Of a stretch of 64,000 nt of DNA, positions 7,073 to 64,000 are shown one piece after another. Each line of letters opens with the position of its first letter. The first letter of the stretch is position 1. The stretch is from an uncultured Thermoplasmata archaeon (lineage in GTDB: Archaea > Thermoplasmatota > DTKX01 > GCA-020343715). The DNA lies in the NCBI GenBank assembly GCA_964353355.1, contig CAYGVT010000017.1, positions 24,567 through 88,566 on the forward strand, read 5' to 3'. A program made the position numbers and the translations under genes. The notes under the pieces are model-generated. The model saw only the letters and a list, made by a program, of their open reading frames with translations. It ran no database searches and had not been told where the DNA came from.

Positions 7073-9579
7073 CGGGCCCGATCATCGATGCCAGGGCGCT
7101 CCTGGGCCTGCTGCGTGCGACCAGCCCCTCAGGCTGCGCGCTCTGCGGTGGAAGTGCACGTGTAGTGTGCACAAGGTGCCGGTCGCGCGTCTGCCCTGAG
7201 TGCGATGCCGGGGCCGATGGCACGGGACGGAAGAAAGGCCGGAGGGGAGGGCGCGGGCCGGCCGTGTGCCTGGCCTGCGCGCTGGAAGGAGGTGACGCCC
7301 CCAACGCCGCCAGGGTCGTGGAGGCACGGCTGTCCGACCTGAACTTGATGGTGAAGGACCTCAAGTCGGGGGGGGGGACGGTCGGGCCGGGCGCGCTGAT
7401 CAGGCCCGCGCATGCCACGCTGCTCCAGCTCGCCTGCCTTGAATCGGTGCTGGGCAGGGAGGGGCTCGAGGCATCCTCCACAGTCCTGAGGCGAGGCCGG
7501 CCGTTCCTCTTGAGGAACCTGGGCCATGCCCTGTCCATCACGGCGGAGGCCGGCCGGCCGACACAATCCAGGGTCGGCGAGCAGCTCGACGCGTACTATG
7601 GCTCGGTAGTTGCCCTGCTGAGAGGTCCGCCCAGGCCCGCTGGGGAGGCCCCTTCCGTCGATGGCGCCGATGGGGACGGGCTATCGTGGGCGCTCGCCAT
7701 CGAGGTGGGGCTGGACAGATTGCGGAGGTACTTCAGCTTCCATCACCTGGACGAGCCAGGGACGACCGTCGATGCCCTCCTCGGACGGGTCTCCAGGAGC
7801 CTGGATGATACGCTCGCCACATCGTCGCCATCGCCTGCCTCGGTCCAGATCGCCGCCATCAGGAAGGTCCTGTTGGAGGTGGATGGGTTTGACGACTACG
7901 ACTCCACGGCGCTGCGGCGATATCTGGACCCCTCCATGGCGGAGACGATCGACGTCCCGGAGATGTCGGCGTTCGTCCGGAGGCTCCTCATCGCCGAGCT
8001 CCTGCTCGCCCTCGCCATCGCCAGGACCGAGGCCGCACCGACCATCCCGGGGAGCGTGAGGGACGACCTGGACACGGACATCGAGAGGCTCGGGACGACG
8101 ATAGGGCGCCTGCTCAGGGCGGCGGACGAGAGGGGGGGTCGGCCCAGCGCGCTGCCCGGCCTCCTCGAACGCGCGCAGTCGGCCACGTTGTCGGCCATGC
8201 GAGCGGCCGTGAGAGCGCGGAGGGCGGCAAGGGCCGGGTCCTATGCTAAGTCGCTCGTGGCGGCGATGCGGGCGATCGTCTGCCTGGAGGGCGTCAGCCT
8301 GCTGCACGAGGCCGCGTTCGGCATGGGCCCCAGGGAGGCCGACATCTGGGACGTGCTCGATGCCTGGACGACCGAGCTCCTCGAGAGCAGCGCCGCCACG
8401 GCCATCGCGGCGCAGGGGGCGCAGGGCGGGCCATGGGACGCAGCGCAGGTCCGTCGCGTCCTTAACGCGACCGATGCCCTGGAGACGAGGTTCGTGGGCA
8501 TGCTCGAGGGTCTGGGCGCCTCATCGAAGGCCGACACCGGGTACATCAGGCCCGCCCACGATCATCTGTGGGGACTGGTCAGATCGATGGTCCTGGCACG
8601 CCTCGCCCCCTCCCCCGACCCCACCGCCCTCATGGGTGTCGTGGGCGGATCCACGGACGACCTCCGCGACCTGCTGGCCCTGAGAAAGGCTCATGGCAGG
8701 CCCCCATCGACCAGGCAGGACGCCTGGTTCGAGGCCAGCCTGGATTCCCTGCGGGCGATGGCCTCCCCGGCCCCCTCCGTCGTGGCCCCCCAGACCCCGG
8801 TGGTCGAGACGGCCGCGGTCCAGGAGGTCGCCGTGGCGGTCCGTCCCGTGCGGCCACCGCCATCCCCGCTCGAGGAGCTGGGCCTCGAGCGCATACTCGG
8901 GGCGTTCGGCGACGCCCCCAGGCTCGTTCGGTGCGGGGGCCTGGGCGCGGGGGGGCTCGTGGCGGTCCTTCTTCCCGGGACGGTGGAGGCGCTCGAGGGG
9001 CTCGAGGGCCGTCTCGGGGGCCGTCTCGGGGGCTCGATATCGATATCTGAAGACCACCTCTCGGCAAGGCTCGTGGCGGTCCCCAGGACGGACGACGTCT
9101 GGGAGGCCAGGGAGCTTGCGCGGGAGGCGTCGCTGCTCCAGATTCTGGCACAGGGCACCCCGGCGGGCGGCCCGGTCACGCTCATCGCCTTCGCATCGCT
9201 CCCTGCGCCTGGAGGGCCGATGGCGATACTCTCGGACACCTGGATCGTCTCGGAGGAGCGCACGGTGAGGCAGTGGGGCCGCCGGGAGGCCCCCGCCTCC
9301 TCCACCGTCTCCGGGCCCATGGACGGCCTGCATGCGGCGCTCTCGAGGGCCGGAGGAGTGACGGTCATCCGGGACGATGGCGGGGCCTACCTGCAGGGAT
9401 GGCTATGGGGCCTCCTGCGCGAGCTGCGGCTCAGGGAGGGCGCGTTGGAGGGAGCGCCCGACGTCCGCGCCGTGCAGCTCGCGGGGAATGCGGCCTTCTA
9501 TCGCTGGCTGTCCGAGGATGGGGCGCGCGATGGCTCCTTTGGAACGACGCTCGATGCCCTCTCACAGGGGGCGGGGTGA
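7069..9579 (+). CDS. hypothetical protein with N-terminal 8-Cys zinc-binding module (4x CxxC) and long Ala/Leu/Arg-rich helical region
   Basis: 836 aa. Starts TTG in a TTGA overlap with the stop of the preceding gene. CALCGGSARVVCTRCRSRVCPECD...VCLAC gives four CxxC pairs (binuclear treble-clef/RING- or B-box-like spacing). No other recognisable motif. Confidence 0.7.
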   Translation: MTGPIIDARALLGLLRATSPSGCALCGGSARVVCTRCRSRVCPECDAGADGTGRKKGRRGGRGPAVCLACALEGGDAPNAARVVEARLSDLNLMVKDLKSGGGTVGPGALIRPAHATLLQLACLESVLGREGLEASSTVLRRGRPFLLRNLGHALSITAEAGRPTQSRVGEQLDAYYGSVVALLRGPPRPAGEAPSVDGADGDGLSWALAIEVGLDRLRRYFSFHHLDEPGTTVDALLGRVSRSLDDTLATSSPSPASVQIAAIRKVLLEVDGFDDYDSTALRRYLDPSMAETIDVPEMSAFVRRLLIAELLLALAIARTEAAPTIPGSVRDDLDTDIERLGTTIGRLLRAADERGGRPSALPGLLERAQSATLSAMRAAVRARRAARAGSYAKSLVAAMRAIVCLEGVSLLHEAAFGMGPREADIWDVLDAWTTELLESSAATAIAAQGAQGGPWDAAQVRRVLNATDALETRFVGMLEGLGASSKADTGYIRPAHDHLWGLVRSMVLARLAPSPDPTALMGVVGGSTDDLRDLLALRKAHGRPPSTRQDAWFEASLDSLRAMASPAPSVVAPQTPVVETAAVQEVAVAVRPVRPPPSPLEELGLERILGAFGDAPRLVRCGGLGAGGLVAVLLPGTVEALEGLEGRLGGRLGGSISISEDHLSARLVAVPRTDDVWEARELAREASLLQILAQGTPAGGPVTLIAFASLPAPGGPMAILSDTWIVSEERTVRQWGRREAPASSTVSGPMDGLHAALSRAGGVTVIRDDGGAYLQGWLWGLLRELRLREGALEGAPDVRAVQLAGNAAFYRWLSEDGARDGSFGTTLDALSQGAG

Positions 9580-9582
9580 CCG

Positions 9583-11157
9583 ATGCTCCGGTTGACAGAC
9601 GACTCTGGCAGGTCGCACGGCTTCCTCGTGGCGGACGTCCACCACCACGTCGGCAGCGAGGGCCAGACGAGGAACCTCAACCCCAAGGAGCCGAACGGCT
9701 CGTACGACTTCTTCAGGGGGGTCCAGTACGGGTCCGAGTCCAAGCCAGGTCTGGCGACCATCCTCAGGGATTCCGACGCCTTCAAGTACCACATCACGGG
9801 GGGGGAGGCGTTCCCCCCTCATCCCATGCTGAGGTGCCTCTCCCTCGCCGACGAGCGGATGGGGAGGGCCTTCGAAGGGAGCTGGGCCATCGACCTGTCC
9901 GTGGCGTTCCCGATGCACGACGACTTCCGCTCCAACGACGTCGTCGAGTACAGGGCCTCCAACAGGCGGCTTGCCAAGGTCGTCGGTGTCCTGCCGAACA
10001 GCCTGAGGTTCATCCCGTGGGGAAGGGTCAACCCGGACGACGGGGCGGTGGCGTGCGAGGAGCTGCACAGGGCCGCCTCAGAGGACGGCATCAGGGGCCT
10101 CAAGCTCCATCCCAAGAGCGAGGGGTTCGACCTCGAGGGGGCGGGGTTCAGGCTGGTCCTGCGCGCGGCGGCGAGGCATGCCCTCCCCGTCATCCTGCAC
10201 ACCGACTGGAAGAGCGACCGCCGCCGCATCGTCGAGGCCGTCGACGACACCATCGTCGCGCTCGCGTCGGAGGGCGACGTGGGGGCGATAGCCGACCTGC
10301 GGGTCATCCTGGGGCACTTCGGGTGGGCCGTGGACCCGGAGATGATAGGCTTCATAGCGCACCCCTGTGTCTACGGTGAGGTCTCCGGGCTGCGCGGCAG
10401 GGGAGCGACGGAGTTCTTCAGGATCGCGAGGGACCACTTCCCCGACCACAGGTGGGACGCCTCGGCCCTCCTTTCGAGGGTCCCAGACCCGTCCAGCGTG
10501 TCCAGGGCGCTCCGCCCGGGGATAGTGGGGGACTGGTCGAGGAAGGTGATGTACGGGTCGGACAACCCCTTCCTCAACCAGAACAACTCCATCGACACCA
10601 TCGGCGCCATCTTGGGCAGGGAGCTCGACCTCACGGCCCTCGAGGTGGCGAACATCCTGGGCCTGAACGCGCTCGCGCTCTTCGCCAACGGCGCCGACGG
10701 GATGGACGGTGGCGGCCGTCCAGCGCCACCGGCGATGACCGTCCCTGGCCAAGTCCCGTTCTCAGGCACCCTGGAGGATGGCGCCCTCTTCCTGGCGGTC
10801 ATGCTGAAGGGCCTGCCCCAGAACATGAGAAGGGTGCGCTTCGTCCCGCTGCTGGCCGCCGAGCCACAGCCCCGGCTGCTGCCCGAGCTGGGGGTGCTGC
10901 ACGTGTCGGGGCGCGAGGAGAGCGGGACCTCGTTGCTCTCGGTCCAGCTGGGGGCCACGGGTCGGATGGGGTTCATGGCAATCGATTGTCCCGCATTCCC
11001 GCCCGCTGCCCTCGGGGACCCCCTGTCCCAGCTCGTCGCCGATGGCCTCGTCGCCGCGGCATCGAGGCAGCCAGGTTGCCAGGCGGCCACGATGGCGGAG
11101 GCGCTCGTGCTGTCACGGTTGGGCACCCGTGGCGGGGAAGAAGCCCAGGAGGATTGA
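9583..11157 (+). CDS. amidohydrolase-2 family (TIM-barrel metal-dependent hydrolase)
   Basis: 524 aa. FLVADVHHHVGSE near N-terminus, GLKLHPKSEG, PVILHTDW, ILGHFGW and MYGSDNPF are spaced as in PF04909-type metal-dependent hydrolases. 4-nt gap from upstream gene. Confidence 0.75.
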   Translation: MLRLTDDSGRSHGFLVADVHHHVGSEGQTRNLNPKEPNGSYDFFRGVQYGSESKPGLATILRDSDAFKYHITGGEAFPPHPMLRCLSLADERMGRAFEGSWAIDLSVAFPMHDDFRSNDVVEYRASNRRLAKVVGVLPNSLRFIPWGRVNPDDGAVACEELHRAASEDGIRGLKLHPKSEGFDLEGAGFRLVLRAAARHALPVILHTDWKSDRRRIVEAVDDTIVALASEGDVGAIADLRVILGHFGWAVDPEMIGFIAHPCVYGEVSGLRGRGATEFFRIARDHFPDHRWDASALLSRVPDPSSVSRALRPGIVGDWSRKVMYGSDNPFLNQNNSIDTIGAILGRELDLTALEVANILGLNALALFANGADGMDGGGRPAPPAMTVPGQVPFSGTLEDGALFLAVMLKGLPQNMRRVRFVPLLAAEPQPRLLPELGVLHVSGREESGTSLLSVQLGATGRMGFMAIDCPAFPPAALGDPLSQLVADGLVAAASRQPGCQAATMAEALVLSRLGTRGGEEAQED

Positions 11158-11160
11158 ACG

Positions 11161-12465
11161 ATGGACCGGACCGCTCTCACCCTCAAGTTCGCTGCAATCG
11201 ATGAATCGAAGATAGCCCTCTCCCCGGCTGACGCTGCGACGCTCGGTGTGGACGTCGGGGACATAGTGAGGGCCATGGACGAGAACTCCATGGAGCTCGG
11301 CGGCGCCAAGGTCGAGGTCAGGGGCGACGTCGAGACGGGCTCGTTCCTGGCCAGCGAGCAGTTCGCCGAGTCGCTCGCCATGGACGAGGGCTATCCGTAC
11401 ACCCTCGAGCGTTACGATGGCGAGATGGACGTGTCGCTCGAGACGGTGATCCTGGACATCACCGAGATGGGCGCCAGGACAGACATGGGGAGGAGCGTCA
11501 CGAGGGGGCATAGCGCGTTCGAGGGCTTCCTCCGTGGCAAGGTCATCAATCGCGGGCTGAAGCTGAGATGGTCCGAGATGGGTGTGAACATCGAGGTCCG
11601 GCAGACGGTCCCGCCCCTGCGGGACAACCAGTACGTCATAGTTGGGGACATCGCCAAGATGGAGCTCTACGCCGTCGGTGTCCCGTTCAACGGCATCCTC
11701 CTCGTGGACGTCAGCAAATCCATGAACGAGACGGACATGGTCGTGGATGACCGCGTCCTGCCCATGCTCAGCAGCCTCCACTACCTGGCGGACAATGCTA
11801 TGCCGGCCATGCACGACTACATCGCCCGCATCGAGAAGAGCGATCGGATACGGAGGATCGACTCGGCGGCCCTGTCGGCGATGCTGTACCTCTCCGAGAA
11901 GGTGGCGAGGGGCCAGGGGGAGAAGACCGCGATCATAACGTACTCGGACCGCGCAGAGCCGCTCTCGTACAGCCTCAGGGAGGGCGATGCCGTGATAGAG
12001 GTCCCATGGTACGACCTCTCCAAGGGCAGCGTGGGGGAGGATGAGAGGCGGGAGGCCGCCGTCGTCATCGGTGATGCGCTGCTGATGCGCATCGAGCGGG
12101 CCGAATCGAAGAACACCAACATGGAGGCGGCGCTCCTGCAGGCCAAGAGCGTGATAGAGATGATGAAGGCCAAGGAGGCCGGGTCCGCTCAGGGCCCTCC
12201 CAAGCCCATCATGGTCGTCTTCCTCACCGACGGCGAGTACAACGTCGGTCGCTCACCTGTGCGGGTGGTCCAGGAGGCCTTCAAGGCCCTCGAGGGGGTC
12301 GTGGTCCACACCGTGGGGATCGGGGGCAGCGTCGACGAGGCGCTCCTGAAGAGGGTCGCCGAGCTCGGGGGGGGGGAGTACTGCAAGGCCCAGAACCTCG
12401 TGGAGCTCGTCGACTTCTACAGCAGGAACGCGAAGCGGTTCGGGACCAGCGCCTTGCTGAGATGA
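11161..12465 (+). CDS. vWA domain protein (paralog of the C-terminal two-thirds of 1813-3315)
   Basis: 434 aa. N-terminal LTLKFAAIDESKIALSPADAATLGVDVGDIVRA matches the barrel module of the first gene. vWA with MIDAS DVSKSMNETD, IMVVFLTDGEYN and VHTVGIGG. 4-nt gap from upstream gene. Confidence 0.8.
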   Translation: MDRTALTLKFAAIDESKIALSPADAATLGVDVGDIVRAMDENSMELGGAKVEVRGDVETGSFLASEQFAESLAMDEGYPYTLERYDGEMDVSLETVILDITEMGARTDMGRSVTRGHSAFEGFLRGKVINRGLKLRWSEMGVNIEVRQTVPPLRDNQYVIVGDIAKMELYAVGVPFNGILLVDVSKSMNETDMVVDDRVLPMLSSLHYLADNAMPAMHDYIARIEKSDRIRRIDSAALSAMLYLSEKVARGQGEKTAIITYSDRAEPLSYSLREGDAVIEVPWYDLSKGSVGEDERREAAVVIGDALLMRIERAESKNTNMEAALLQAKSVIEMMKAKEAGSAQGPPKPIMVVFLTDGEYNVGRSPVRVVQEAFKALEGVVVHTVGIGGSVDEALLKRVAELGGGEYCKAQNLVELVDFYSRNAKRFGTSALLR

Positions 12466-13015: not shown

Positions 13016-13470
13016 CGAGTGGTCGTGTAATGTTGAAGCAGGGTATATATAGTTTGCCAGGCGATAGAATTTGGCCAGGGTCGAATGGGAGGGCCTCCCT
13101 CATCGAGGGGCCGTCCCTGCGTCCCTGCGTCGAGGATGCGAGCGGGTCGGTCGCACCGGAGGTCGGGGGTCGCCATCGAAAGATGGTGCACATCGAGCAA
13201 GAAGGTCGGTCGAGGTGCTGACCATAGGGGCCGGGTGGAGGGCCGTCACCGATTGCCATGGGGATGGTCATCGGGGGGCGGGTCGCATCCGGGGGCGCGA
13301 AGCACTGACGGGAGACCGAGTCGGCCCCCCCATACCCTTGTCGATGGGAGCAAGAACCTGGGGACCGATCGACTGCACCGCCCCTCTCGCTTGGATTGGC
13401 ATCTGGGGAGGGAACGAAGGATTATATAGTGACCCTTCCTATATTCCAAGGCGGAGGAAAGGTGGATCCC

Positions 13471-14664
13471 ATGTTCTGTGGGGGATGTGGTGCCCAGCTC
13501 GTCGAAACCGCGATGTTCTGCCCGTCTTGCGGTCGCAAGGTCGAACTACAGCCCGTCCAAGGTGGTGCGGCCCCGCCCACGGGCGGCCAGGGCGCGGGAG
13601 CCTCCGGGACCCAGCTCCTCTGGACCCCGCCCCCTCAGCCCCAGCAGGCCGCGCCCCGACCGCCGCCACCACCGCCTCCCGCGGCTCCATGGGGTCAGCC
13701 CATGCCCCCCGTCCAGGCCACGCCGCAGAGCTATGTCCCTGTGAGCCCGGTGCAAGGTCAGGCACCGGCACCCGCATGGGCGCCGGCCTATACCCCGCCC
13801 CCGTACCTCCCGGCGCCGCCCGCCGGGGCCGCAACCACAGCGGCCGGAGGGCCCTCCGGGCTGACATCCAAGGTGAGGGGCCATGCCCGTGGCCTTCCCG
13901 CGTTGGTCAGGGCCTCCACCGCGAACAAGGTCCTGGCGGTGGCGATGGCGATGGGCATCATCGGCGCCCTCCTCCTTCTATTCGGCCCTCTGGGCTCGTA
14001 CAGCTCCAGCACCACCACCAGCTCATCCAACAGACACTACAACGGGTACACGGACACGTACTACTACACCACCGACTACAGCACCTCTTGGAGCGACACG
14101 ACACTCACCATCGCCTCTGCACAGTTCGGTCTGTCTGGCCTCCTTTCAATCATCGCACTGCTGGCCGGTGTCTTCCTGGTGTACAGGTCGATGCTGACCG
14201 ACGACCCCGTTAGCAAGTGGAAGTACCTGCGTCGCGGCTTCCTCCTCCCCATCGTGGCCATAGTGGTCATGTTCGTGACGGGAGCGGCGTTCGCGAGCTG
14301 GGCCGACTCCCAGGAATACGATGAGATCGGTATCGAGGCGGGGCTCGGATGGGGTGTGATATTCAGCATCCTTCAGATGGTACTTGTGCTCGGAGCCTCG
14401 ACCCGTATCCCGAGACCCGCGGATGTGCGTCCGCTCCTCCACCCCGCGATCATGGCCCCCGTGGAGAGGGCCACATCCATGGTGCGCCAGGGGTCGAGGT
14501 CGGCCTTGAACCAGTCCAAGCCCGAGCTGATGGCCCCCCAGGGGATGCAGATGCAGTCAGGCGGTCCGGTCAGCAGCGGTCCAATGGGCGCTCCATACTA
14601 CCCTCCGATTGGCACGGCCCCTCCACCGTACGGGTACCCACCGCAAGGGGGTCCACAGAGGTAG
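13471..14664 (+). CDS. zinc-ribbon domain membrane protein (N-terminal DZR zinc ribbon, Pro-rich linker, multiple TM helices)
   Basis: Start at MFCGGCGAQLVETAMFCPSCGRKV, preceded by GGAGG and a TATA-like ATTATATAG at 13421-13430. Long PPPPPPP linker, then hydrophobic helices (VLAVAMAMGIIGALLLLFG, LSGLLSIIALLAGVFLVY, LLPIVAIVVMFVTGAAFA). Confidence 0.65.
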   Translation: MFCGGCGAQLVETAMFCPSCGRKVELQPVQGGAAPPTGGQGAGASGTQLLWTPPPQPQQAAPRPPPPPPPAAPWGQPMPPVQATPQSYVPVSPVQGQAPAPAWAPAYTPPPYLPAPPAGAATTAAGGPSGLTSKVRGHARGLPALVRASTANKVLAVAMAMGIIGALLLLFGPLGSYSSSTTTSSSNRHYNGYTDTYYYTTDYSTSWSDTTLTIASAQFGLSGLLSIIALLAGVFLVYRSMLTDDPVSKWKYLRRGFLLPIVAIVVMFVTGAAFASWADSQEYDEIGIEAGLGWGVIFSILQMVLVLGASTRIPRPADVRPLLHPAIMAPVERATSMVRQGSRSALNQSKPELMAPQGMQMQSGGPVSSGPMGAPYYPPIGTAPPPYGYPPQGGPQR

Positions 14665-14895: not shown

Positions 14896-16149
14896 ATGAG
14901 GAAGTGGGCCCTCCCGTCGGCAGTCATCATCCTCTTGGCCATGCCCATGCTCCTGACATGTGCGGCCGATGCCTCACCGGACCCCCTGAACCTCCCCCCG
15001 GAGGTCCTCGGCCGTGCCCCCCTGGACGCCACGCCCGGTGTGGAGTACTACTGGGACATTGACGCCCAGGACCCCGACGGCGACAGGCCCGCGTTCACCC
15101 TCCTCGAGGGGCCCGTGGGCGCGACCCTGAACGGCACCACGGGGGAGCTCAGATGGACGCCGCCCCAGGGGACCGAGCCCATCTCCATCCAGATAGCGTT
15201 CAGCGTGGAGGTCTCGGACGCCACCGACGCCATCTACGTCAACTTCACGGTCCGGTTGCGGTACCCCTCGGACGAACCCCCTGCGATCATCGGGAACCTC
15301 ACGAGGCTCAATGCCAAGGGTGACACCGAAATCGACCTGGGACAATACATGTCCGACCCGGACGACCCCATCACGAACCTCACCTGGCGCATCGAGCAGC
15401 AAGACCAGTCGGGCTTCTCGGCCAAGGTGGTCGGGCGCAAGTTGCTGGTCGCCCTCGAATCCAGCGAGAAGGGCACGGGTTCGTTGACGTTGGTCCTCGA
15501 GGACCCATCGGGCCTCTCCGACCGCAGAGAGGTCGAGGTCGAGTACGACGGGACGATGGACGTCGTGTACGGCGTCATGTGCTGGGTCATCATCATCGTC
15601 ATCGTCGCGCTCATCGTCGCGATGGTCACGCTCAGGCACCGCTCTCGGTCGATGGCGGCAGCGCCTGCGCCCGGTCAGGGAGACAAGACGGTCGGTGGCA
15701 GATGGGTCCCCACGGGCCCTCCGTGCGTGGTCGAGGACGTCCTCGTCGTGTACAGGGACGGACGGCTGATCGGGAGGTACGGCACGGCAGGGCACATGAC
15801 CCAGGACGCCGACCTGATGTCCGGGATGCTCATCGCCGTCCAGGGCCTGGTCCAGGACGGGTTGCACGACGGTGGCGAGCTGGAGAGCATCAAGTACGGC
15901 GACAACATCCTCCTGGTCTCGAGCGGGTCGTTCGTCAACCTCGTGGCCGTCGTCTCCGGGACCCCGGACGACGCCCTCATCGAGGAGATGCGGACGATGG
16001 TCCAACGCATCGAGGAGAGGTACACCGATTCCATCGCCAACTGGACGGGGGACCTCTCGACCTTCTCCGACATGGGCGAGGTGGTGGAGCCCCTGCTCTC
16101 GCGCAATCCTGCAGGCGGGAGCGAGGCCATGGGCGCCGATGCGCACTGA
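14896..16149 (+). CDS. receptor-like single-pass membrane protein: signal peptide, extracellular cadherin-like/He_PIG Ig-like domains, TM helix, cytoplasmic roadblock/LC7-like domain
   Basis: Start MRKWALPSAVIILLAMPMLL (ORF begins at 14848). GVEYYWDIDAQDPDGD...GELRWTPP has He_PIG/dystroglycan-type pattern. TM CWVIIIVIVALIVAMV. Cytoplasmic VVEDVLVVYRDGRLIGRYG...DADLMSGMLIAVQGLVQDGLHDGGELESIKYGDNILLVSSG fits Robl/LC7. Confidence 0.75.
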   Translation: MRKWALPSAVIILLAMPMLLTCAADASPDPLNLPPEVLGRAPLDATPGVEYYWDIDAQDPDGDRPAFTLLEGPVGATLNGTTGELRWTPPQGTEPISIQIAFSVEVSDATDAIYVNFTVRLRYPSDEPPAIIGNLTRLNAKGDTEIDLGQYMSDPDDPITNLTWRIEQQDQSGFSAKVVGRKLLVALESSEKGTGSLTLVLEDPSGLSDRREVEVEYDGTMDVVYGVMCWVIIIVIVALIVAMVTLRHRSRSMAAAPAPGQGDKTVGGRWVPTGPPCVVEDVLVVYRDGRLIGRYGTAGHMTQDADLMSGMLIAVQGLVQDGLHDGGELESIKYGDNILLVSSGSFVNLVAVVSGTPDDALIEEMRTMVQRIEERYTDSIANWTGDLSTFSDMGEVVEPLLSRNPAGGSEAMGADAH

Positions 16150-16404: not shown

Positions 16405-17175
16405 ATGGCATTCTGTTCGTTCTGTGGCACCACGCTCCATCCTGGGGTCGCATTCTGCTATGCATGCGGGGAGAAGGTCCTGCCTCCCCCCCAGGCCGCC
16501 CCCGGGGCACCGCCTCCCCCGCCTGCGCCTGCCGCAGTCCCCCAGCAGCAGACAGTCCCGACGCCCTCCCCGGCTGTCGCTCCTGTTCCCGCACATGGTC
16601 CGCCGTCCCCTCCGAAGGCCCCCCAGGTGCAAAAAGAGGCCCCCTCGGTCGAGCAGGCGCCGCCCCAGGTCGCGGTGGCCAAGGGCACCTGCCCCCGATG
16701 CGGGAAGGAGCTGCGACCAGGGATGGCATTCTGCGTGAGCTGTGGGGCCAAGGTCGACGCCCAACACCCCGCGCCCCCGACCTCCCAGTCCCCGCCCTCG
16801 GCGCCGAAGCCCCCGAAGGCGGAGGAGGCCATGGCGGCTCCCAAGGCGCCCGCTCCTGCGGGTGCGTCCTGCGCAAAGTGCGGCAAGCCGCTCGAACCGC
16901 AGGCGAGGTTCTGCCCGTCCTGTGGCACGGCCGTTGAGGCCAAGCCGGCGACGGCCGCCCCCACGTCACCGGTCCCGACGCCCGCACCGACCCCACAGCC
17001 CGTCCAGCTCCCGGCCCCGACACCGGTCGTGGCAACGGCGCCCGCTTCACAGGCGCCGACCGCACGGATATGCGCGGGATGCGGGAAGCCGCTCCACCCC
17101 CAGGCGGTCTTCTGCATAAGGTGCGGTAGGAAGTCGGAGGTGCCCCCCGTCACCTCGGTGACTGGTTCATCGTGA
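16405..17175 (+). CDS. zinc-ribbon repeat protein (four DZR-type zinc ribbons separated by Pro/Ala-rich linkers)
   Basis: 256 aa. Four copies of CxxCG-x(8-12)-FCxxCG: FCSFCGTTLHPGVAFCYACG, CPRCGKELRPGMAFCVSCG, CAKCGKPLEPQARFCPSCG, CAGCGKPLHPQAVFCIRCG. GGAGG 8 nt upstream of ATG. Confidence 0.7.
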   Translation: MAFCSFCGTTLHPGVAFCYACGEKVLPPPQAAPGAPPPPPAPAAVPQQQTVPTPSPAVAPVPAHGPPSPPKAPQVQKEAPSVEQAPPQVAVAKGTCPRCGKELRPGMAFCVSCGAKVDAQHPAPPTSQSPPSAPKPPKAEEAMAAPKAPAPAGASCAKCGKPLEPQARFCPSCGTAVEAKPATAAPTSPVPTPAPTPQPVQLPAPTPVVATAPASQAPTARICAGCGKPLHPQAVFCIRCGRKSEVPPVTSVTGSS

Positions 17176-17654: not shown

Positions 17655-17990
17655 CGGAAGGCTTTTTAATACCCTGGGGCCATAGATTCCCGGTAAGGGA
17701 GGGAAGCCCGGGTGAGGAAGTCACTAGTGGTGGGGGTCCTAGCGGTCCTGCTCGCATTGCCAACCTTCGTAGGCCTACCGCATGAGGCCCCCGCGGACGG
17801 TCAGCCTTGGGACGAGGCTCAGGTCGGACCGCGCATCACCGCACCGAATCTGGCCGAGGTCTCCGAGATATTCCGTGGCCTCCAGGGTTTCTTCACCGAG
17901 AACCTCGGCCTGGTCGACAATCCCGAGGTCAGATTCTACGCGCAGGGGGACGCTCTGTCGGTTGGGTTCACGCTCGATGGCCTCATCCTA
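17655..17990 (+). repeat. duplicated promoter plus 5'-CDS module (copy A), ~80-85% nucleotide identity to 26605-26940
   Basis: Aligned by eye: ...TTTTTAATACCCTGGGG...GGTAAGGGAGGGAAGCCCGGGTGAGGAAG...GGTCCTAGCGGTCCTGCTCGC...TTCTACGCGCAGGGGGA... shared with the region upstream of and within gene 26660. Confidence 0.7.
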
Positions 17991-20900
17991 TTGCTGTCAG
18001 ATGACCGCACTTCGGATGGCACCTCGACCGGTGAGGGCCCCTCCGAGACCTACGTTCTCAAGCTGTCGTTCGAGGATGACCGGTCGGTGGAGCCCGTGGG
18101 CTTCCATGCGGTGCCGCACTTGACGAACTCATTCGTCGGCAACGACGCATCGAAGTGGGTGCGCGGGGCCAGGAGTTTCGAGGAGGTGAGGTACGAGGGC
18201 CTGTACGAGGGCATCGACCTCAGGTTCCACTTCAAGGATGGACGCCTGAAATACGACTTCATCCTAGCCTCGTGGGCGGACCCCGGCTCGGTGCGGATGA
18301 GATACGATGGTGCCACCGGGCTCCGTGCGGACCCGGAGACCGGCGACATGTTGGTCTCGACGCCCATGTGCACGCTCAGGGACGAGCGGCCCGTCATCCT
18401 CTGGGAGGCGGCGGGTATGGCAAGGAGCTGCCCTGGCGATTTTGCGCTCGGCGGGAATGGCTCTTGGGGTTTCGCCCTGCCCGAGGGGGTTCCGCGTGGC
18501 GTCCCGATGACCATTGACCCTGGACTGGCATGGTCTACGTTCCTCGGGGGTTCCGGGAGGGATACCCTCTACAGCGTGGCTGTGGATAAAGATGGGTCAG
18601 TATATGCCGTCGGACAGACCGACTCGATCAACTACCCGACCACTTCGGGAGCCTACGACCGCACGCAGAACCAATATAAAGGGCTCGTGACGAAACTGGA
18701 CCCATCGGGCTCAACGATACTGTTCTCCACCTTTTTCGGGGGGACGAACAGCACTGTCCCGGGTGGTAGCACTGTGACCCAGTCCGCTGGAATGACACCC
18801 GATGGGAACCTTGCCCTGGCGAGCATCACATATTGCGATGATTGCCCGACAACGCCGGATGCCATCTACGCGACACATAGGGGTAGAGCAGACATTTACT
18901 TCCTCGTCCTCAATCCACAGGGGAGCGACTTGGTCTATGCCTCATACCTTGGAGGAAGCGATCGGGACGTCGCGCATGACCTCGTCATCGACGATGAAGG
19001 CGCCGTCGTCATCGTGGGCGAGACCAGCTCTCCCGATTGGACGGTCCCGCCCAATACGTACTGCAGCACCTACAATGGCGTCAATGACGTGTTTGTCCTG
19101 AAGTTGAGCCCCACGTACCATGAGATACGAGCGATGACCTACCTCGGTGGGACATCTAACGATATGTCCTACCAGACCGACGTCGATTCCGACCAGAACA
19201 TCGTGGTTACGGGCGGGACATTCTCGACCGACTTTCCAACAACACCGGGTGCCTATTGCACGACCCATGCAGGATACCTCGACAGCTTTCTCACGAAGTT
19301 CGACCCGAATTGCACAAGATTGATCTTCTCCACAATGTACGGGGGGACTGGCCAGGACGATGGCTGCCGTCTCCGTGTGTGCGGTGATGGCAGGATCTGG
19401 GTCGGGGCCGAGACGACCTCCCCGGACTACCCCGTCACTCCTGATGCCCAATACGATAGCTTCTCGGGAGATGTCGATCCTGGCATCTCGGTCTTTGATG
19501 CTACCGGGTCGCGCTTGCTTTATAGCACCTACTTCCCGGGGACGAGATACGAATCGGTCTACGGCTCGGCTATCGATGAGAAGACGAATCAAATCTATTT
19601 CTACACCCGCAGCAGCTCAACCGTGCTGCCAACGACCAAGGGATGCTATTGCCCCGTGTACTCCGGAGGTTCCAATGATTTGCTGGTCGTCGGTTTCAAC
19701 CTCACAACTTACAAGTTCGATTACTGCACGTACATAGGTGGGTCGGGGGTGGATAATGTCGATCTCTCATGGGGCGACACCATGATGGTCGATGATGAGG
19801 GCTATCTCTACCTCGCAGGAACGACTGCCTCCACCGATTTCCCGACGACCGGGCAGGCGGCGACCCGTGCATACGCCGGAGGTACATTCGATGGTTTCGT
19901 CCTCAAGCTCGACCCGAGGCCAATCCAAGACCCGCCGGAAAAACCGACCGGTCTGGTATCGAGGCCTGGCAACAATCAAGTTGAGGTCATGTGGGATAGT
20001 CCGACAGCAGAAAACTACAAGGTTCACAAGTACCAGGTCTTCAGGTCGCCCAGGGACAGGCTGGGGCCAGATGCCATCAAGTGGTTGGTCACAAAGGGAA
20101 CATCATACAAAGACATGACGGTACAGAACGGGAAGACATATTATTACTGGGTCTCGGCCTTCAATAGTGTGGGGGAAGGCGCCCTCGCCGGACCGGTGGA
20201 TGGTCGGCCCATGGGGTCGCCCAGCGCGCCGCAGAACCTCGTCGCGCAGAGCGGAAACGGACGCGTCACGCTCACCTGGACGCCCCCGGCCACCATGAGT
20301 GGCGGGCAACTGCTAGGTTATGTCGTGCTGAAGGGTGGCAACAGCCATGAGCTCGTGCAACATGCCTTGATCGGCGCAGATGATAGGTGGGAGGACACGG
20401 AGGTCGAACTGGGCAAGACCTATTTCTATTCCCTGAAGGCTTTCAATGAGATATTCTCTGGTGAGCAGAGCTCGATTGTCGGTATCAAGGCAAGGGATAG
20501 GGCCTCGGCACCATTGAAGGTTAGTCTGGTGCCCATCGACAGGGGCGCTCTCATCTCATGGCAACCCCCCTTCAGCAATGGGGGCGCCACGATCCTTGGT
20601 TATCACATCCTCAGGGGACCATCCGAGGAATCCATGGAGATTGTCGGGATCACGTCACCATCCGAGCGGTCCCTCCCCAACTATGGTCTGACCAACGGAG
20701 TGGAATACAACTACAGTGTGGCAGCTTTCACCGAGGTGGGCATGGGCTACCCTAGCGAGCCTCTCACGGTCAAGCCAACCGGCACGCCCTCAGAACCACG
20801 CAACTTCATCGCGATGAGAGGCGACGGGTCCGTACGCCTGATATGGGATTCCCCCGCGAACGATGGCGGATGGCCAGTGACGGGTTATAAGGTGTACGCG

Positions 20901-22115
20901 GGGAAGGAAATCCTCGTGGAAATCGAATCGAACCTGAATGCGACGTATTACCTTCACACAGGATTGACGAATGGCGATCCATGGTATTACTCCATTAGCG
21001 CAATGAATAGATTGGGGGCGGGCCCAAAGAGTAACATCTCGTTCGCTGTCCCTCTCGGACAATCGGAAGCTCCCGCTTCATTCATCGTGGAACCGATGAG
21101 GGGTATGGTAAGGCTCTCATGGTATACCCCCCTCGACACAGGAGGGGCACCCCTCTTCGAGTACCGCATCTATCGTGCGATGACGGATTCCCCTTTCGAG
21201 TATCTGAAGGGATTGGCCACCACGGCCCTCAATTATTGGGATTACGAGATCGTCAACGGAAGGACGTACAAGTACTATATCGTCGCGGTGACGGAGATGG
21301 GCGAAGGGCGTTCGACATCCATCGAATCGGCCATCCCATATGGGTCTCCAGGCAGACCATCAGGTCTATTTCTGGAGGCCGGCGACCGCAGAGTGACACT
21401 CCATTGGACCGCTCCGGAGAACGATGGAGGAAGAGCAGTCGAGGGATACAGCATTTTTCGCGGCCTCTCCCCCCAGTCTATGGTGGAACTTCTCAAGGTC
21501 ACGCCACAGGAGACCTACACGGACATGAGCACGGAGCTCACGAACGGAGTCGATTATTACTACAGCATCAGAGCGCTGAATGAGGCGGGCGAAGGACCCG
21601 AATCGGACGTCATGACCGCACGTCCTGCGGGGGTCCCTGGCGTGGTCTCGGATTTCGCTGTCACATCAGAAACGGGAACGATCATACTCACATGGAAACC
21701 GCCGGCCATAGGGGGAGGTCGCTCCGTCATCGGCTACGTGATATACAGGGGCAGGACCATATCGGGGATGGTTGCCTACAGGACCCTCGGTACGGCCCTG
21801 AGCTTCTTGGACCTAGACGTGGAACTGGGCGAAAGCTACTTCTATTCCGTTTCCGCCGTCAATACCGAGGGCGAGGGTGACATTGCCACGCCGAGGCTCA
21901 TCGAGGTACCCCCGAGGATGTCCGGTGGTTGGACCGGAGAATCGGCCCTCTACTGGGTTCTTGTCATTGTGGTGCTCAGTGTCATGACCTTGATGGTCAT
22001 CGTCGTCCTCGTGCGTAACAGGTTCACCCGCCCACCATCACGTCATGGTTCTTCTAAAGAGAAATCGGCCAATCGGACTGGTGGCAAAGCAGATGGTAGG
22101 GGTGGTGGTCGATGA
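17712..22115 (+). CDS. giant secreted surface protein: signal peptide, conserved N-terminal domain, SBBP beta-propeller repeats, ~8 fibronectin type III domains, C-terminal TM anchor
   Basis: 1467 aa, GTG start after GGTAAGGGAGGG. N-terminal domain FTENLGLVDNPEVRFYAQGDALSVGFT. Repeats like DTLYSVAVDKDGSVYAVGQTDSINYPTTSGAYD (SBBP). Repeated FN3 units with LTWTPP/GY motifs. C-terminal TM WVLVIVVLSVMTLMVIVVLV. Confidence 0.85.
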   Translation: MRKSLVVGVLAVLLALPTFVGLPHEAPADGQPWDEAQVGPRITAPNLAEVSEIFRGLQGFFTENLGLVDNPEVRFYAQGDALSVGFTLDGLILLLSDDRTSDGTSTGEGPSETYVLKLSFEDDRSVEPVGFHAVPHLTNSFVGNDASKWVRGARSFEEVRYEGLYEGIDLRFHFKDGRLKYDFILASWADPGSVRMRYDGATGLRADPETGDMLVSTPMCTLRDERPVILWEAAGMARSCPGDFALGGNGSWGFALPEGVPRGVPMTIDPGLAWSTFLGGSGRDTLYSVAVDKDGSVYAVGQTDSINYPTTSGAYDRTQNQYKGLVTKLDPSGSTILFSTFFGGTNSTVPGGSTVTQSAGMTPDGNLALASITYCDDCPTTPDAIYATHRGRADIYFLVLNPQGSDLVYASYLGGSDRDVAHDLVIDDEGAVVIVGETSSPDWTVPPNTYCSTYNGVNDVFVLKLSPTYHEIRAMTYLGGTSNDMSYQTDVDSDQNIVVTGGTFSTDFPTTPGAYCTTHAGYLDSFLTKFDPNCTRLIFSTMYGGTGQDDGCRLRVCGDGRIWVGAETTSPDYPVTPDAQYDSFSGDVDPGISVFDATGSRLLYSTYFPGTRYESVYGSAIDEKTNQIYFYTRSSSTVLPTTKGCYCPVYSGGSNDLLVVGFNLTTYKFDYCTYIGGSGVDNVDLSWGDTMMVDDEGYLYLAGTTASTDFPTTGQAATRAYAGGTFDGFVLKLDPRPIQDPPEKPTGLVSRPGNNQVEVMWDSPTAENYKVHKYQVFRSPRDRLGPDAIKWLVTKGTSYKDMTVQNGKTYYYWVSAFNSVGEGALAGPVDGRPMGSPSAPQNLVAQSGNGRVTLTWTPPATMSGGQLLGYVVLKGGNSHELVQHALIGADDRWEDTEVELGKTYFYSLKAFNEIFSGEQSSIVGIKARDRASAPLKVSLVPIDRGALISWQPPFSNGGATILGYHILRGPSEESMEIVGITSPSERSLPNYGLTNGVEYNYSVAAFTEVGMGYPSEPLTVKPTGTPSEPRNFIAMRGDGSVRLIWDSPANDGGWPVTGYKVYAGKEILVEIESNLNATYYLHTGLTNGDPWYYSISAMNRLGAGPKSNISFAVPLGQSEAPASFIVEPMRGMVRLSWYTPLDTGGAPLFEYRIYRAMTDSPFEYLKGLATTALNYWDYEIVNGRTYKYYIVAVTEMGEGRSTSIESAIPYGSPGRPSGLFLEAGDRRVTLHWTAPENDGGRAVEGYSIFRGLSPQSMVELLKVTPQETYTDMSTELTNGVDYYYSIRALNEAGEGPESDVMTARPAGVPGVVSDFAVTSETGTIILTWKPPAIGGGRSVIGYVIYRGRTISGMVAYRTLGTALSFLDLDVELGESYFYSVSAVNTEGEGDIATPRLIEVPPRMSGGWTGESALYWVLVIVVLSVMTLMVIVVLVRNRFTRPPSRHGSSKEKSANRTGGKADGRGGGR

Positions 22116-25100
22116 TACCGGCGCGTTTGACGGCTCCCCTCATGGCCGTCCTTGTCATCTTGCCCGTCCCATCCGTGCTCCTCCCGGACTTGGGGGAGGA
22201 CCCGGTGGATCTCGGAACTGTCTCGCCACCCCTTTCTATGGACGGCGGGTCATCAAAGGCGTTGGAAGGTTTCCGCAACCTCGATGGGCACTTCATAGAA
22301 AACAAAGGCCAGTTGGACAATGCGGATGTCAGGTACTACGCGTTGGGGGACCCGCTCTCCGTGGGCCTCACGCCTACAGGTTTGATCCTCACGCTGTGCG
22401 GTTCGCCGGACGGGGGCACGACCACAGCGAGTGCCATTCATCCCGAAATGGTCGTGTTCAAGCTCAACTTCTTGGGAACCGCCCCAGTCGAACCCTCCCC
22501 CTGCGCGGTTGCGACGCATCCCACAAACTACTTTATCGGGAACGATGCCTCGAGATGGGTCCAGGGCGCGAGGAGCTATTCAGAGGTTCGCTATAGCGAT
22601 ATCTATCAGGATGTGGATCTCAGGCTCTACTTCAATGAAGGTATGCTGAAGTACGAGTTCCTCGTCGGGACGGATGGTGACCCAAGTTCCATAAGGCTCG
22701 GTTACGAGGGAGTGGACGATGTGAGGGTAGAGGCGCTTACGGGCGACATGCTCGTGCGCACCGCCATCGGCACCATCAGGGATTCAAGGCCCATCATCAC
22801 GTCCACGAGGGGTGAGAGGGAGACACGCATCGATGCCAGCTTCGAGCGCCCCGAAAAGGGGGTCTTCGGCTTCAATGTTCCTCATGATGTCCTCGGTCAA
22901 AGGCCTTTCATCATAGACCCCGGTCTCCGGTTCAGCACATATCTGGGAAGTGCAAAGCGCGATGAGGTGTTCTTCTCCACTGCAATCGATTCCGATGGCA
23001 ACATCATGGTCGGGGGTTACACCGGTTCTAACGATTTTCCCACAACACCAGGTGCGTACAATCGCACATGGAACGCGTACAAGGCCTTCATTGCCAAGTT
23101 CGACCCGACACTCTCGGCCATGTTGTTCTCAACCTTCTACGGGGGAGATGAATCCAATTCATTGTCCGCGACATTCGACTATAGCATTGACGTCCTCAAA
23201 GATGACAGGATCCTCGTGGTAGGGCATACGACCGCGAGCAACTTCCCTGTCACGGATGATGCATTCGAGGAGCACTACCAGGGATTGTCAGATGGATACA
23301 TTGTGGTTTTGAGTGGGGATGGGGGGTCGCTCCTCTATTCCTCTTACTTCGGTGCGGAACAGGACGACGGGGGGTTCTCGACCGCGCTCCTGCAGGATGG
23401 CTCGCTCCTGATCATGGGAGCCACCGCATCATCCGGACTGCCCACCACCCCTGGCGTATTCCAGACGACGAAGTCCAAAGGCACCGATATCTTCCTGGCC
23501 AAGTTCGACAGCTCCCTGAAGCGGCTGGTCTTCTGTACCTACATCGGGGGCTCGGCCGAAGATATGTGCATCTCCGGTGGAACGGTGGGCTGTGACCTAT
23601 ATGGTGACATATACCTGGTCGGTTATACATCCTCAGGTGACTTCCCGACCACCAGCAATGCCTACAGGAGGATACCCCAGGGAAACCTCCCTGACATGTT
23701 CTTCATGAAGCTCACTTATAACGCGAGCCGTCTCCTCTACGGTACTTATCTAGGTGGTGATGGCGAGGATTATCCCGTTTGGCTCCATGTGACACAGATC
23801 GGACAGGCCTACGTCCTTGGTTACACGAATTCCAAGGACTTCCCCGTGACCGTCGATGCCGCCGACACAACACTCGATGGGGCTTGGGACGGCTTTATCC
23901 TGGCGCTTGACCAGTATGGCTATCCCAGATACTGTACACTGTTCGGAGGAGATGGCGATGATTGTATCTATCGTGGGGTTTTTAATCCAGAGAGGGATCT
24001 CATCATATTCGCCGGCGAGACCTCATCAACCGACCTTCCCTGGACGACCGGCTGCTATTGCCCCGTGCTTGCTGGCGGGCATAACAACATCTTCGTTGGG
24101 GGGTTCTCCAGGATATCCTATTCCCTCAGGTATTGTACCTACATGGGTTCCCCGGGTACCAATTCACAAGATTCTTCGACGATACGGCGCCTCTCCCTCA
24201 AACGGGAAGGCGAACTGGTCATGGCGGGGCTCACAAAGTCGACGGACTTCCCCACCACCCGAAGTGCATTCATGAGGGTCGGTTGCGGTCTGAACTGGGA
24301 TGGGTACCTCTTTGTCCTGGACCCGACCCCAGTCCCGCCACCTGTGGCTCCCACAGGATTCAGCGCCCTTGCTGGCGATGCCCATGTGAGACTAGAATGG
24401 GACAGGCACATCAATGAGAGCTATGTCACACTGGGGTACGCGCTCTTCCGCGGGCTCACTCCAGACCAGCTGGACCTCTTGGCCAATACCACCGCAAACA
24501 CCACGTACGAGGATACCAACGTCACCAATGGCAAGCGGTACTATTACGAGGTTAGGGCCATAAACAGCATGGGTGCGGGTGAAGCTGCCGGTCCCTTGGA
24601 GGCAAGGCCCATGGGCATGCTCTCCGAGCCCCAAAACTTGACGGCGAGCACTGGCGAAGGGACCGTCGTCCTTACCTGGGACCCTCCGAGCTCAACTGGC
24701 GGCGTGGAGGTCCTCGGCTACCACATCCACAGAGGTTCATCGGACACCAACCTGATACCACAGGATTCTGTCATCTCGCAGATGAATTTCACGGACACCA
24801 GCGTGCTCCCTGGGACCTATTACTGGTACGCAGTCGTGGCCTACAACGAGCGGGGCAATGGCACCGTGAGCACTCCGTTACAAGTGAAGGCGCTGGGCAG
24901 GGCATCCGCGCCCACGATGCTCAAGGTCAACGCGGGGAACGGATGGGTTGACATCACCTGGGGTCCTCCGGAATCGACGGGAGGAGCACCCATCCTCGGC
25001 TACATGGTCTTCAGGGGACCCTCGCCCGAGGAGATGGCACCTTTGTGCAGCACAAGCCCGCAGGGATTGGGCCACAATGATACGACCGTCGAGGGCGGAG

Positions 25101-26604: not shown

Positions 26605-26940
26605 GCAAGGTTTTTTTATTCCCCAGGGTCTTGGTTGCTAGGTAAGGGAGGGAAGCCAGGTGAGGAAGACAGTGATGGTGGGGGTTCTAGCGGTCCTGCT
26701 CGCTTTGCCAACTCTCGTGAGCCTGCCGCAAGGTGCCCCTGCAGACGGGCAGTCCTCGGACGGGGCCCGGGTCGTCCCACGCACCACCGCACCAGACCTG
26801 GCCGAGGTGTCCGGGATGTTCCATGGCCTCCCGGGTTTCCTCACCGAGAACCTCGGCCCGGTCGACAACCCCGAGGTCAGGTTCTACGCGCAGGGGGATT
26901 CTCTCTCCGTAGGCCTCCCACGCGACGGGCTCATCATCAC
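26605..26940 (+). repeat. duplicated promoter plus 5'-CDS module (copy B), counterpart of 17655-17990
   Basis: GGTTTTTTTATTCCCCAGGG...GGTAAGGGAGGGAAGCCAGGTGAGGAAG...GGTTCTAGCGGTCCTGCTCGC...TTCTACGCGCAGGGGGA. Confidence 0.7.
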
Positions 26941-55715: not shown

Positions 55716-55848
55716 GGAGTGGTATGACGGTCATAGCTGCGGGGTTCACCCGGTCCCATTCCGAACCCGGTAGTTAAGCCCGCATACGTTCCTGCCTGTA
55801 CTGAGGTGCTCGCGCCCTCGGGAACACAGGAAAGCTGTCAACCACTCC
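55716..55848 (+). rRNA. rrf: 5S ribosomal RNA
   Basis: GGUCCCAUUCCGAACCCGGUAGUUAAGCCCGC core matches the universal 5S loop B/helix III consensus. Termini GGAGUGGU...ACCACUCC form helix I. No 16S/23S within +/-8 kb. Confidence 0.7.
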
Positions 55849-59196: not shown

Positions 59197-61299
<2,103 letters not shown>

Positions 61300-61300
61300 C

Positions 61301-64000
<2,700 letters not shown>

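Follow-up and report, generated by a model that had tools for sequence, protein, structure and literature searches.

What sits behind the membrane-spanning helix of a large archaeal surface protein, and with what might it communicate in the cytoplasm? Two genes, here called p1 (14896–16149, + strand) and p2 (26660–30577, + strand), raise this question in the window, by which we mean the whole stretch of 64,000 nucleotides (64 kb) that was analysed, from contig CAYGVT010000017.1 of an uncultured Thermoplasmata archaeon. An initial annotation had described two open reading frames (ORFs) with a shared segment after a transmembrane helix, had taken the segment for an intracellular Roadblock/LC7 (MglB-like) domain and had proposed outside-in signalling to a small GTPase. 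Both ORFs exist as described, and the peptide strings quoted for them are present in both. The predicted structures place the segment in the longin/Roadblock superfold with the element order of longins, and profile searches trace it through a family that extends into bacteria, where its gene lies beside that of a Ras-family GTPase. The best explanation overall, which we hold at a probability of roughly 0.55, is that a variable adhesin-like ectodomain and one transmembrane helix are joined to a constant cytoplasmic longin-type module that docks a partner, plausibly a small GTPase, in a mostly archaeal family. The window is archaeal (S19e, aIF6, TiaS, XPD and DUF373 are encoded; 67% GC), and we saw no sign here that the host is affiliated with Asgard archaea.

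Architecture and fold of p1 and p2

p1 is a 417-amino-acid (aa) type-I membrane protein composed of a signal peptide, an immunoglobulin (Ig)-like ectodomain, a transmembrane helix, a longin-type domain and a 10-aa tail; read from the ATG at 14896, it is identical to the NCBI-called protein P0003. A hydrophobicity scan marks the signal-peptide-like N-terminus MRKWALPSAVIILLAMPMLLTCAA (14896–14967), which is followed by a He_PIG/Big_9 Ig-like ectodomain (residues 44–119, 15025–15252; Pfam E = 5.5e-7 for Big_9 and 1.5e-5 for He_PIG, each over its cut-off), a transmembrane helix at residues ~223–246 (15562–15633; Kyte-Doolittle maximum 3.16) that runs into RHRSRS, and the cytoplasmic longin-type domain (residues 275–407, 15718–16116), delimited by the family hidden Markov model (HMM), an AlphaFold2 (AF2) model and Foldseek. 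p2, at 1305 aa, is likewise a type-I membrane protein, with a signal peptide, a large Ig-rich ectodomain, a transmembrane helix, a longin-type domain and an appendage-like tail. Its He_PIG/Big_9 Ig-like domains occupy residues 538–612 and ~626–717 (28271–28810; Pfam He_PIG E = 4.4e-12, two stretches), its transmembrane helix residues ~823–845, then RRSARR (29126–29194; hydrophobicity and flanking charge), and its longin-type domain residues 881–1013 (29300–29698; HMM E = 8e-48, AF2 model). All of these features are on the + strand, and the GC content at third codon positions (GC3) is 0.90 in p1, typical for coding sequence of this genome, and 0.89 in p2.

The two proteins are paralogues: BLASTP aligns them at 39% identity over 388 aa (E = 2e-72), a similarity far above chance that spans the membrane-proximal ectodomain, the transmembrane helix and ~133 aa beyond it. 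In the ectodomain, residues 28–217 of p1 align with residues 626–815 of p2, so that the second Ig-like domain of p2 is the counterpart of the one in p1. The conserved segment that had been put at ~110 aa directly after the membrane is real, but it measures ~133 aa and begins 28–35 aa beyond the helix in both proteins. The description of the ectodomains as cadherin-like is loosely right, as some relatives match Pfam Cadherin_4 or Cadherin_5, although the matches of p1 and p2 themselves are to the Ig-like families He_PIG and Big_9.

Both proteins have a signal-like hydrophobic N-terminus and one internal transmembrane helix in the hydrophobicity scan, and in both an Arg/Lys-rich stretch follows the helix directly (LRHRSRS in p1, MRRSARR in p2). 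The flanks of the helix are acidic on the outer (N) side and basic on the inner (C) side, and N-glycosylation sequons are concentrated N-terminal to it (16 versus 1 C-terminal in p2, 4 versus 1 in p1). Together, the flanking charges and the sequon distribution indicate a predicted N-out, C-in topology for p1 and p2, in agreement with the intracellular placement first suggested for the segment.

To describe the fold, AF2 models were built without templates and secondary-structure elements were assigned by DSSP. The p1 domain model has a mean predicted local distance difference test score (pLDDT) of 84 and a predicted template modelling score (pTM) of 0.77; the cytoplasmic region of p2 has a pLDDT of 87, and in its longin part (model residues 15–113) the block values are mostly 85–95, falling to ~61–73 at residues 41–70. 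Both models follow the order b-b-a-b-b-b-a, then short helices, and neither has an N-terminal helix; in p1 the elements are E12–20, E25–30, H39–56, E64–68, E71–77, E81–88 and H93–109, followed by short C-terminal helices. Longins have the order b-b-a-b-b-b-a(a), of which the Roadblock order a-b-b-a-b-b-b-a is a circular permutant (PMC3747258). Since just 4–9 residues separate the transmembrane helix from b1 in many relatives, an N-terminal helix is not a conserved part of the domain.

When the domain model was compared with the Protein Data Bank (PDB) by Foldseek, 34 matches were obtained at E≤1e-3, and among the matches listed all belong to the longin or the Roadblock/MglB/LAMTOR class. The longins (VAMP7, AP2 sigma2, AP1 sigma3, zeta-COP and TRAPP) align over 123–142 columns with template modelling scores (TM-scores) of 0.55–0.62 and root-mean-square deviations (rmsd) of 3.1–3.7 Å; individual values are TMq 0.57–0.60 for VAMP7 (4afi, 4b93, 2vx8), 0.58/0.62 for AP2 sigma2 (6owt_S) and 0.56/0.60 for TRAPP (7b6d_E). 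The predicted structure thus lies above the TM-score of 0.5 to solved longin domains that we used to assign the longin class. MglB, a Streptomyces Roadblock protein, LAMTOR and a Thorarchaeota Roadblock protein gave E-values similar to those of the longins, with TM-scores of 0.33–0.46 and 18–23% identity. At the level of sequence, Pfam Robl_LC7 (PF03259) scores 12.3 bits on p1 (E = 0.14) against a gathering score of 23 and does not match p2. Among 52 diverse members of the family, the only weak Pfam matches to recur are Robl_LC7 (9/52 at E≤1, best E = 7e-4) and Fuz_longin_1 (5/52, best E = 7.5e-3), every other family being seen once; none of the 52 matches a longin sequence family over threshold, Fuz_longin_1 being sub-threshold throughout. 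PDB searches with the domain as a single sequence and as profiles returned nothing significant, and marginal matches to MotA (E~0.05) were disregarded.

The models thus place the domain in the longin/Roadblock superfold with the topology of a longin, and by its sequence it lies outside PF03259. The Roadblock/LC7 assignment was right as to the structural class, to which Foldseek and the weak Pfam matches both point, but not as to Pfam membership or element order, and by TM-score longins fit better. Some authors use the name "Roadblock/LC7 superfamily" for the whole group (bioRxiv 2020.10.19.343400). The predicted fold and element order are common to eukaryotic longin domains (VAMP7, the N-terminal domains of AP sigma and mu, zeta-COP, TRAPPC2/C4, Mon1-Ccz1, Fuzzy-Inturned). 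Longin SNAREs, however, are tail-anchored with the longin at the N-terminus, whereas p1 and p2 are prokaryotic and carry it directly after the transmembrane helix of a type-I surface protein. MglB and the Roadblock/LC7 proteins share the superfold in circularly permuted form (PMC3747258) and, like the bacterial homologues of the p1/p2 domain described below, have a GTPase partner; they are soluble, while the p1/p2 domain is membrane-tethered, lacks the N-terminal helix and falls under the gathering cut-off.

Past its longin domain, p2 continues for roughly 290 aa in a tail that, by AF2 and Foldseek, resembles an adaptin appendage. The model contains a cytoplasmic Ig-like beta-sandwich (residues 1027–1136, 29738–30067; strands at model residues 159–268, pLDDT ~90–97), an alpha/beta platform of order a-b-a-b-b-b-b-a (residues 1150–1267, 30107–30460; model residues 282–399) and a C-terminal helical hairpin (residues 1279–1301, 30494–30562; helices at model residues 411–419 and 423–433), all on the + strand. 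This predicted layout of sandwich and platform, with pLDDT mostly >90, fits the appendage definition of PMC11188069, and appendage structures of adaptins or COPI, at least 12 of them, are matched at E-values from 3.6e-9 to 2.4e-7, including the COPI appendage 9qpq_H (3.6e-9), the AP2 alpha-ear (1e-8), the beta2-ear (6e-8) and the gamma-COP ear 1pzd (2.4e-7). A mu-homology domain (AP mu, E~3e-7) was judged less likely than an appendage, as the C-terminal subdomain is alpha/beta and the ears score better. The module common to p1 and p2 thus starts with a juxtamembrane longin-order domain, to which, in the models, p2-type proteins add a helical linker and the appendage-resembling region.

Adaptin and COPI appendages consist of an Ig-like beta-sandwich followed by a TBP-like alpha/beta platform, as does the modelled p2 tail. 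Archaeal appendage-like proteins have been linked to loci of the endosomal sorting complex required for transport (ESCRT), one of them being linked to a transmembrane segment, and Asgard fusions of a longin with an appendage are known (Makarova et al. 2024, PMC11188069). p2 shares with these proteins the cytoplasmic side of a transmembrane linker (Meth_adaptin, GOLD-transmembrane-appendage) and the co-occurrence with a longin (Asgard longin + appendage + Vps28-C). It differs from adaptins and archaeal appendage-like proteins in having no sequence-level match to them, no solenoid trunk, hinge or Vps28-C and no nearby ESCRT genes, and in the giant variable ectodomain attached to it.

Family extent and the bacterial Rup neighbourhood

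The breadth of the family emerged from an exhaustive profile search, word-indexed homology searches having given just 2 and 9 relatives. At E≤1e-3 the longin-type domain is found in 4,409 cluster representatives, of which 1,485 remain at E≤1e-10; neither Pfam nor NCBIfam holds a model for it. This distribution marks the segment as a genuine domain of wide occurrence. It lies 5–60 aa past the last transmembrane helix in most transmembrane members of the top 150, and never is such a helix found after it. A census with HMMs cut from the p2 model divides 152 sequences into 77 with longin, Ig and platform (p2-like), 32 with the longin only (p1-like), 20 with longin and Ig and 21 with two longins; the last group includes multipass membrane proteins with direct tandem copies and proteins lacking a transmembrane helix with copies ~505 aa apart. 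Archaeal members of the latter kind (among P0006, P0054 = L028 25–3720 and P0059 = L003 266–1993) have 2–3 domain copies at this spacing, accompanied by CARDB and DUF5915. Both sampled loci of these other architectures, the multi-copy type without a transmembrane helix and the multipass tandem type, adjoin a FEN1 (XPG) gene.

Outside the membrane the family is highly variable: 32 members between them contain 64 Pfam families, such as PKD, fn3, Big_9, He_PIG, cadherin-like, FG-GAP, NosD and LVIVD. This combination of a variable outside with a constant inside is the pattern expected of a receptor or adhesin superfamily. In no case, either in the layouts of the top 150 or in the 152-sequence census, is an enzymatic output domain fused downstream of the longin-type domain. 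Integrins and cadherins offer an analogy, as they too combine a variable ligand-binding ectodomain, a single transmembrane helix and a conserved adaptor-recruiting tail, and FG-GAP and cadherin-like repeats occur in some family members; their cytoplasmic parts are not homologous to those of the p1/p2 family, and the likeness would be purely architectural.

The family also has a bacterial branch. A profile search of genome contigs gave a single locus, in an Acidobacteriaceae metagenome-assembled genome (L001), where the domain occupies residues 160–295 of a 537-aa protein that also has a transmembrane helix at ~300–324 and an OmpA domain. There is a 4-nt overlap between the gene of this protein and that of a Ras-family GTPase of 167 aa (Pfam Ras, E = 1.2e-26); upstream of the pair lies a gene for a coiled-coil protein, and downstream of it one for a hybrid histidine kinase. 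The archaeal HMM matches 120/120 listed Terriglobales "OmpA family" proteins (P0171–P0290, including Granulicella sibirica) at E-values of 1e-23 to 1e-33, covering HMM positions 2–129, its full length, in every one. Residues kept in both the archaeal and the bacterial branch are the b1-b2 hairpin, helix alpha1 (D..ML.A.Q) and an aromatic-x-Gly motif after alpha2; in the platforms formed by longin and Roadblock domains, this helix helps to form the dimer interface and is situated on the face that binds the GTPase (PMC3747258). The bacterial domain ends ~5–8 aa ahead of the transmembrane helix, and since the OmpA domain is periplasmic the domain is cytoplasmic, which lends independent support to the topology of p1 and p2.

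In Granulicella (L031) the gene order is coiled-coil protein, domain protein, GTPase, kinase, and in a 48%-identical relative (L032) it is GTPase, GGDEF protein, ~200-aa protein, domain protein. The neighbours at L001, L031 and L032 are thus a Ras/Arf-like GTPase, a coiled-coil protein of ~200–256 aa and either a histidine kinase or a GGDEF protein, and genes of this set were also seen at L027. Because the linkage survives rearrangement into two gene orders, the bacterial domain and the GTPase are likely to be functionally coupled. The neighbourhood is that of the Group 1 Rup GTPases, whose membrane protein was described as a domain that is conserved but has no known function, followed by a transmembrane helix and OmpA (Wuichet & Sogaard-Andersen 2015, PMC4316618). 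Complete Group 1 Rup modules in Terriglobales lie at L001 6714–11597, L031 4358–9035 and L032 2792–6587, and public records label the membrane protein just "OmpA family protein". The proposed link to a small GTPase accordingly holds for the bacterial branch of the family; for the archaeal members outside-in signalling is a proposal, and no GTPase gene stands beside any of the 26 archaeal loci described below.

The Rup membrane protein and p1/p2 resemble each other in having a homologous cytoplasmic domain close to a single transmembrane helix, within a few residues of it in the bacterial protein. They differ in that the Rup protein places the domain before the helix and a peptidoglycan-binding OmpA domain outside, while p1 and p2 place it after the helix, with an Ig-rich, adhesin-like array outside. 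Pfam finds no OmpA domain in p1 or p2, and no Rup-module GTPase, coiled-coil, histidine kinase or GGDEF gene was found around the archaeal members or in the window. HMMs of the Ig, platform and linker parts of the p2 tail did not match the bacterial operon partners (coiled-coil protein, histidine kinase, GGDEF protein, GTPase).

In the literature searched we found no earlier description of an architecture of the p1 or p2 type. The fold class, its association with GTPases and appendage-like domains in archaea are already known. What is undescribed there is this very large family, the juxtamembrane placement of the domain in proteins with giant ectodomains of variable make-up, and its probable identity with the "unknown" domain of the Rup partner. 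A fold and a likely role can thereby be assigned to the domain that accompanies bacterial Group 1 Rup GTPases, and the same domain forms the constant cytoplasmic end of giant variable archaeal surface proteins, often with an adaptin-appendage-like region after it. Longin-order domains outside Asgard archaea have so far been regarded as essentially eukaryotic, and PMC3747258 reported none in prokaryotes. The family provides a testable handle on how archaeal adhesin-like proteins communicate with the cytoplasm and on how long ago longin, GTPase and appendage were first combined at membranes.

A candidate mechanism and its alternatives

Longin and Roadblock domains are universal platforms for small-GTPase regulation at membranes. 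We count as established the membrane topology, the class of fold, the existence of the family, its homology with the membrane protein of the Rup module and the appendage-like layout of the modelled tail, and propose the following mechanism. By analogy with other longin/Roadblock systems, the longin-type domain would pair with itself or with a paralogue (p1 with p2) to form a platform just under the membrane. The conserved face of helix alpha1 would then be the docking site for a partner in the cytoplasm, the best candidate being a small Ras-superfamily GTPase, as in the bacterial branch; further proteins could be recruited by the appendage-like tail as a second hub; and binding of the ectodomain to a surface, polymer or cell would be coupled to recruitment, clustering or sorting machinery inside. 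The pairing step is consistent with the tandem longin-longin proteins, the adjacent divergent gene pairs and the two copies in the window, and longin and Roadblock domains are known to act in pairs. Archaeal neighbourhoods were compared for 22 close relatives with flanks of up to 10 kb and 4 divergent members, 26 loci altogether, in which the recurrent neighbours are other giant surface proteins. Adjacent pairs of family genes occur at L009, L010, L011, L012, L015 and L021, with longin domains 45–54% identical in five pairs and 81% in L021, and the downstream copies of the L009–L011 pairs cluster with p2. Such pairs may encode conserved heterodimer partners.

Several observations weigh against a GTPase-docking module in archaea. 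No small GTPase or Roadblock protein is encoded near the 22 close and 4 divergent archaeal loci (phmmer, motif search), no conserved partner gene came out of clustering the neighbourhoods of the 22, and no GTPase fusion occurs among the top 150 members. The statement that the window contains no GTPase gene holds: none was found anywhere in its 64 kb by Pfam, by phmmer with a small-GTPase seed or by a relaxed six-frame scan for P-loop and NKxD, the only P-loops being those of ABC ATPases, UvrB and UvrA. Asgard GTPases are generally found outside operons with Roadblock or longin genes as well (PMC10933270), and the missing operonic GTPases in archaea are therefore weak negative evidence. Furthermore, many longins, such as those of SNAREs and AP sigma/mu, do not regulate GTPases, and the best structural matches here are of that kind; the appendage matches of the p2 tail have low TM-scores (0.19–0.37) and high rmsd, and Pfam gives no sequence support for an appendage, its matches to the tail being Cohesin and HYDIN Ig at E~0.1. 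Finally, it is the identity of the gene neighbourhoods, rather than any accessions in common, that leads us to infer that the p1/p2-type domain is the unknown domain of PMC4316618.

Much of this would be accommodated by an adaptor or anchor that works independently of a GTPase, the main competitor and a possible explanation, though clearly less probable than a GTPase-docking module. The longin would then only dimerise or oligomerise the surface protein, and the tail would tie it to sorting, ESCRT-type budding or scaffold proteins, so that the adaptor would be built into its own cargo, comparable to the AP sigma/mu longins and ears and to the archaeal Meth_adaptin GOLD-transmembrane-appendage proteins. 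That VAMP7/AP sigma longins and adaptin/COPI ears, which work in coat and sorting contexts, are the best structural matches speaks for such an adaptor, as do the absence of a GTPase near any archaeal member examined and the described ESCRT-linked archaeal appendage-like proteins and Asgard longin-plus-appendage fusions (PMC11188069). It is opposed by the bacterial branch, which is firmly tied to a GTPase, and by the p1-type members (32/152), which have no appendage yet keep the longin domain; moreover, Pfam finds no Vps4, ESCRT-III, SPFH or GOLD genes in the window, and clustering of the 22 related loci gave no conserved partner gene of any kind. A broader reading, about which we are doubtful, would make the family a prokaryotic, membrane-integrated counterpart of the building blocks of eukaryotic coat adaptors, with longin and appendage wired to cargo-like surface proteins and the longin homologous to a bacterial GTPase-coupled transmembrane module. 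If that were true, membrane-tethered longin-GTPase platforms and the longin-appendage pairing would predate eukaryotes and reach well beyond Asgard archaea, and p1/p2-type proteins would use a small GTPase for outside-in signalling or for cargo-driven sorting.

A strict Roadblock/LC7 (MglB-like) domain, serving as a platform with GTPase-activating or guanine-nucleotide-exchange function for an MglA/Arf-like GTPase whose gene lies elsewhere in the genome, is unlikely. Robl_LC7 is the most frequent of the weak Pfam matches and is found on P0011 and P0029 at E~0.03 (profile positions 15–89 and 14–58 of 91), and Foldseek retrieves MglB and Roadblock structures; but all Robl_LC7 matches fall under the gathering score, the defining N-terminal helix is absent, the TM-scores to Roadblock proteins stay below those to longins, and the bacterial partner GTPase is of the Rup type (Ras/Arf-like), not MglA. 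Very improbable is a small-molecule sensor of the PAS/GAF/profilin kind that reports a cytoplasmic ligand. Alpha/beta sandwiches of this size frequently have sensory roles, and profilin and Roadblock domains have a core in common (PMC10933270), yet neither the top 50 Foldseek matches nor recurring Pfam matches among the 52 members include PAS, GAF or profilin, and no enzymatic output domain is ever fused downstream; we rejected the PAS/GAF reading on the Foldseek match list.

Other genes of the window

Between p1 and p2 lie two genes for surface proteins of ~1,470 aa (17712–22115 and 22112–26539, +; DUF7948, SBBP, fn3). Both begin with a signal peptide and end in a transmembrane helix plus a tail of only 29–44 aa. 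They are 35–37% identical over ~1,400 aa to longin-appendage members and are thus "tail-less" paralogues of these. Their GC content of 58–59% and GC3 of ~0.71, compared with a GC3 of ~0.9 in the neighbouring genes, suggest recent acquisition.

Zinc-ribbon proteins are encoded on both sides of p1 (13396–14664 and 16405–17175) and at 3320–7072, all on the + strand. One combines an N-terminal Zn ribbon with a Pro-rich region and 4 transmembrane helices, another has about four Zn ribbons with Pro-rich linkers, and a 1,250-aa protein ends in a double Zn ribbon. Archaeal appendage-like proteins are also accompanied by Zn-ribbon proteins (PMC11188069).

Elsewhere, genes for VWA-domain proteins (1813–3315 and 11161–12465, +) bracket a co-directional block (3320–11157) that encodes an amidohydrolase along with large proteins of 1,250 aa and 836 aa that match no Pfam family, and may represent a separate uncharacterised system. 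Downstream of p2, a 1,024-aa C25 (gingipain-like) peptidase (33243–36317, +) is encoded directly 3' of an ABC-2 transporter pair (30733–33151), the permease of which has a CarboxypepD_reg or Big_1 Ig-like domain inserted. A lone 5S rRNA gene is located at 55723–55843 (+), with no 16S or 23S gene adjoining, and the window closes with bacterial-type uvrB followed by uvrA (59197–64000, +), the latter running past the window end.

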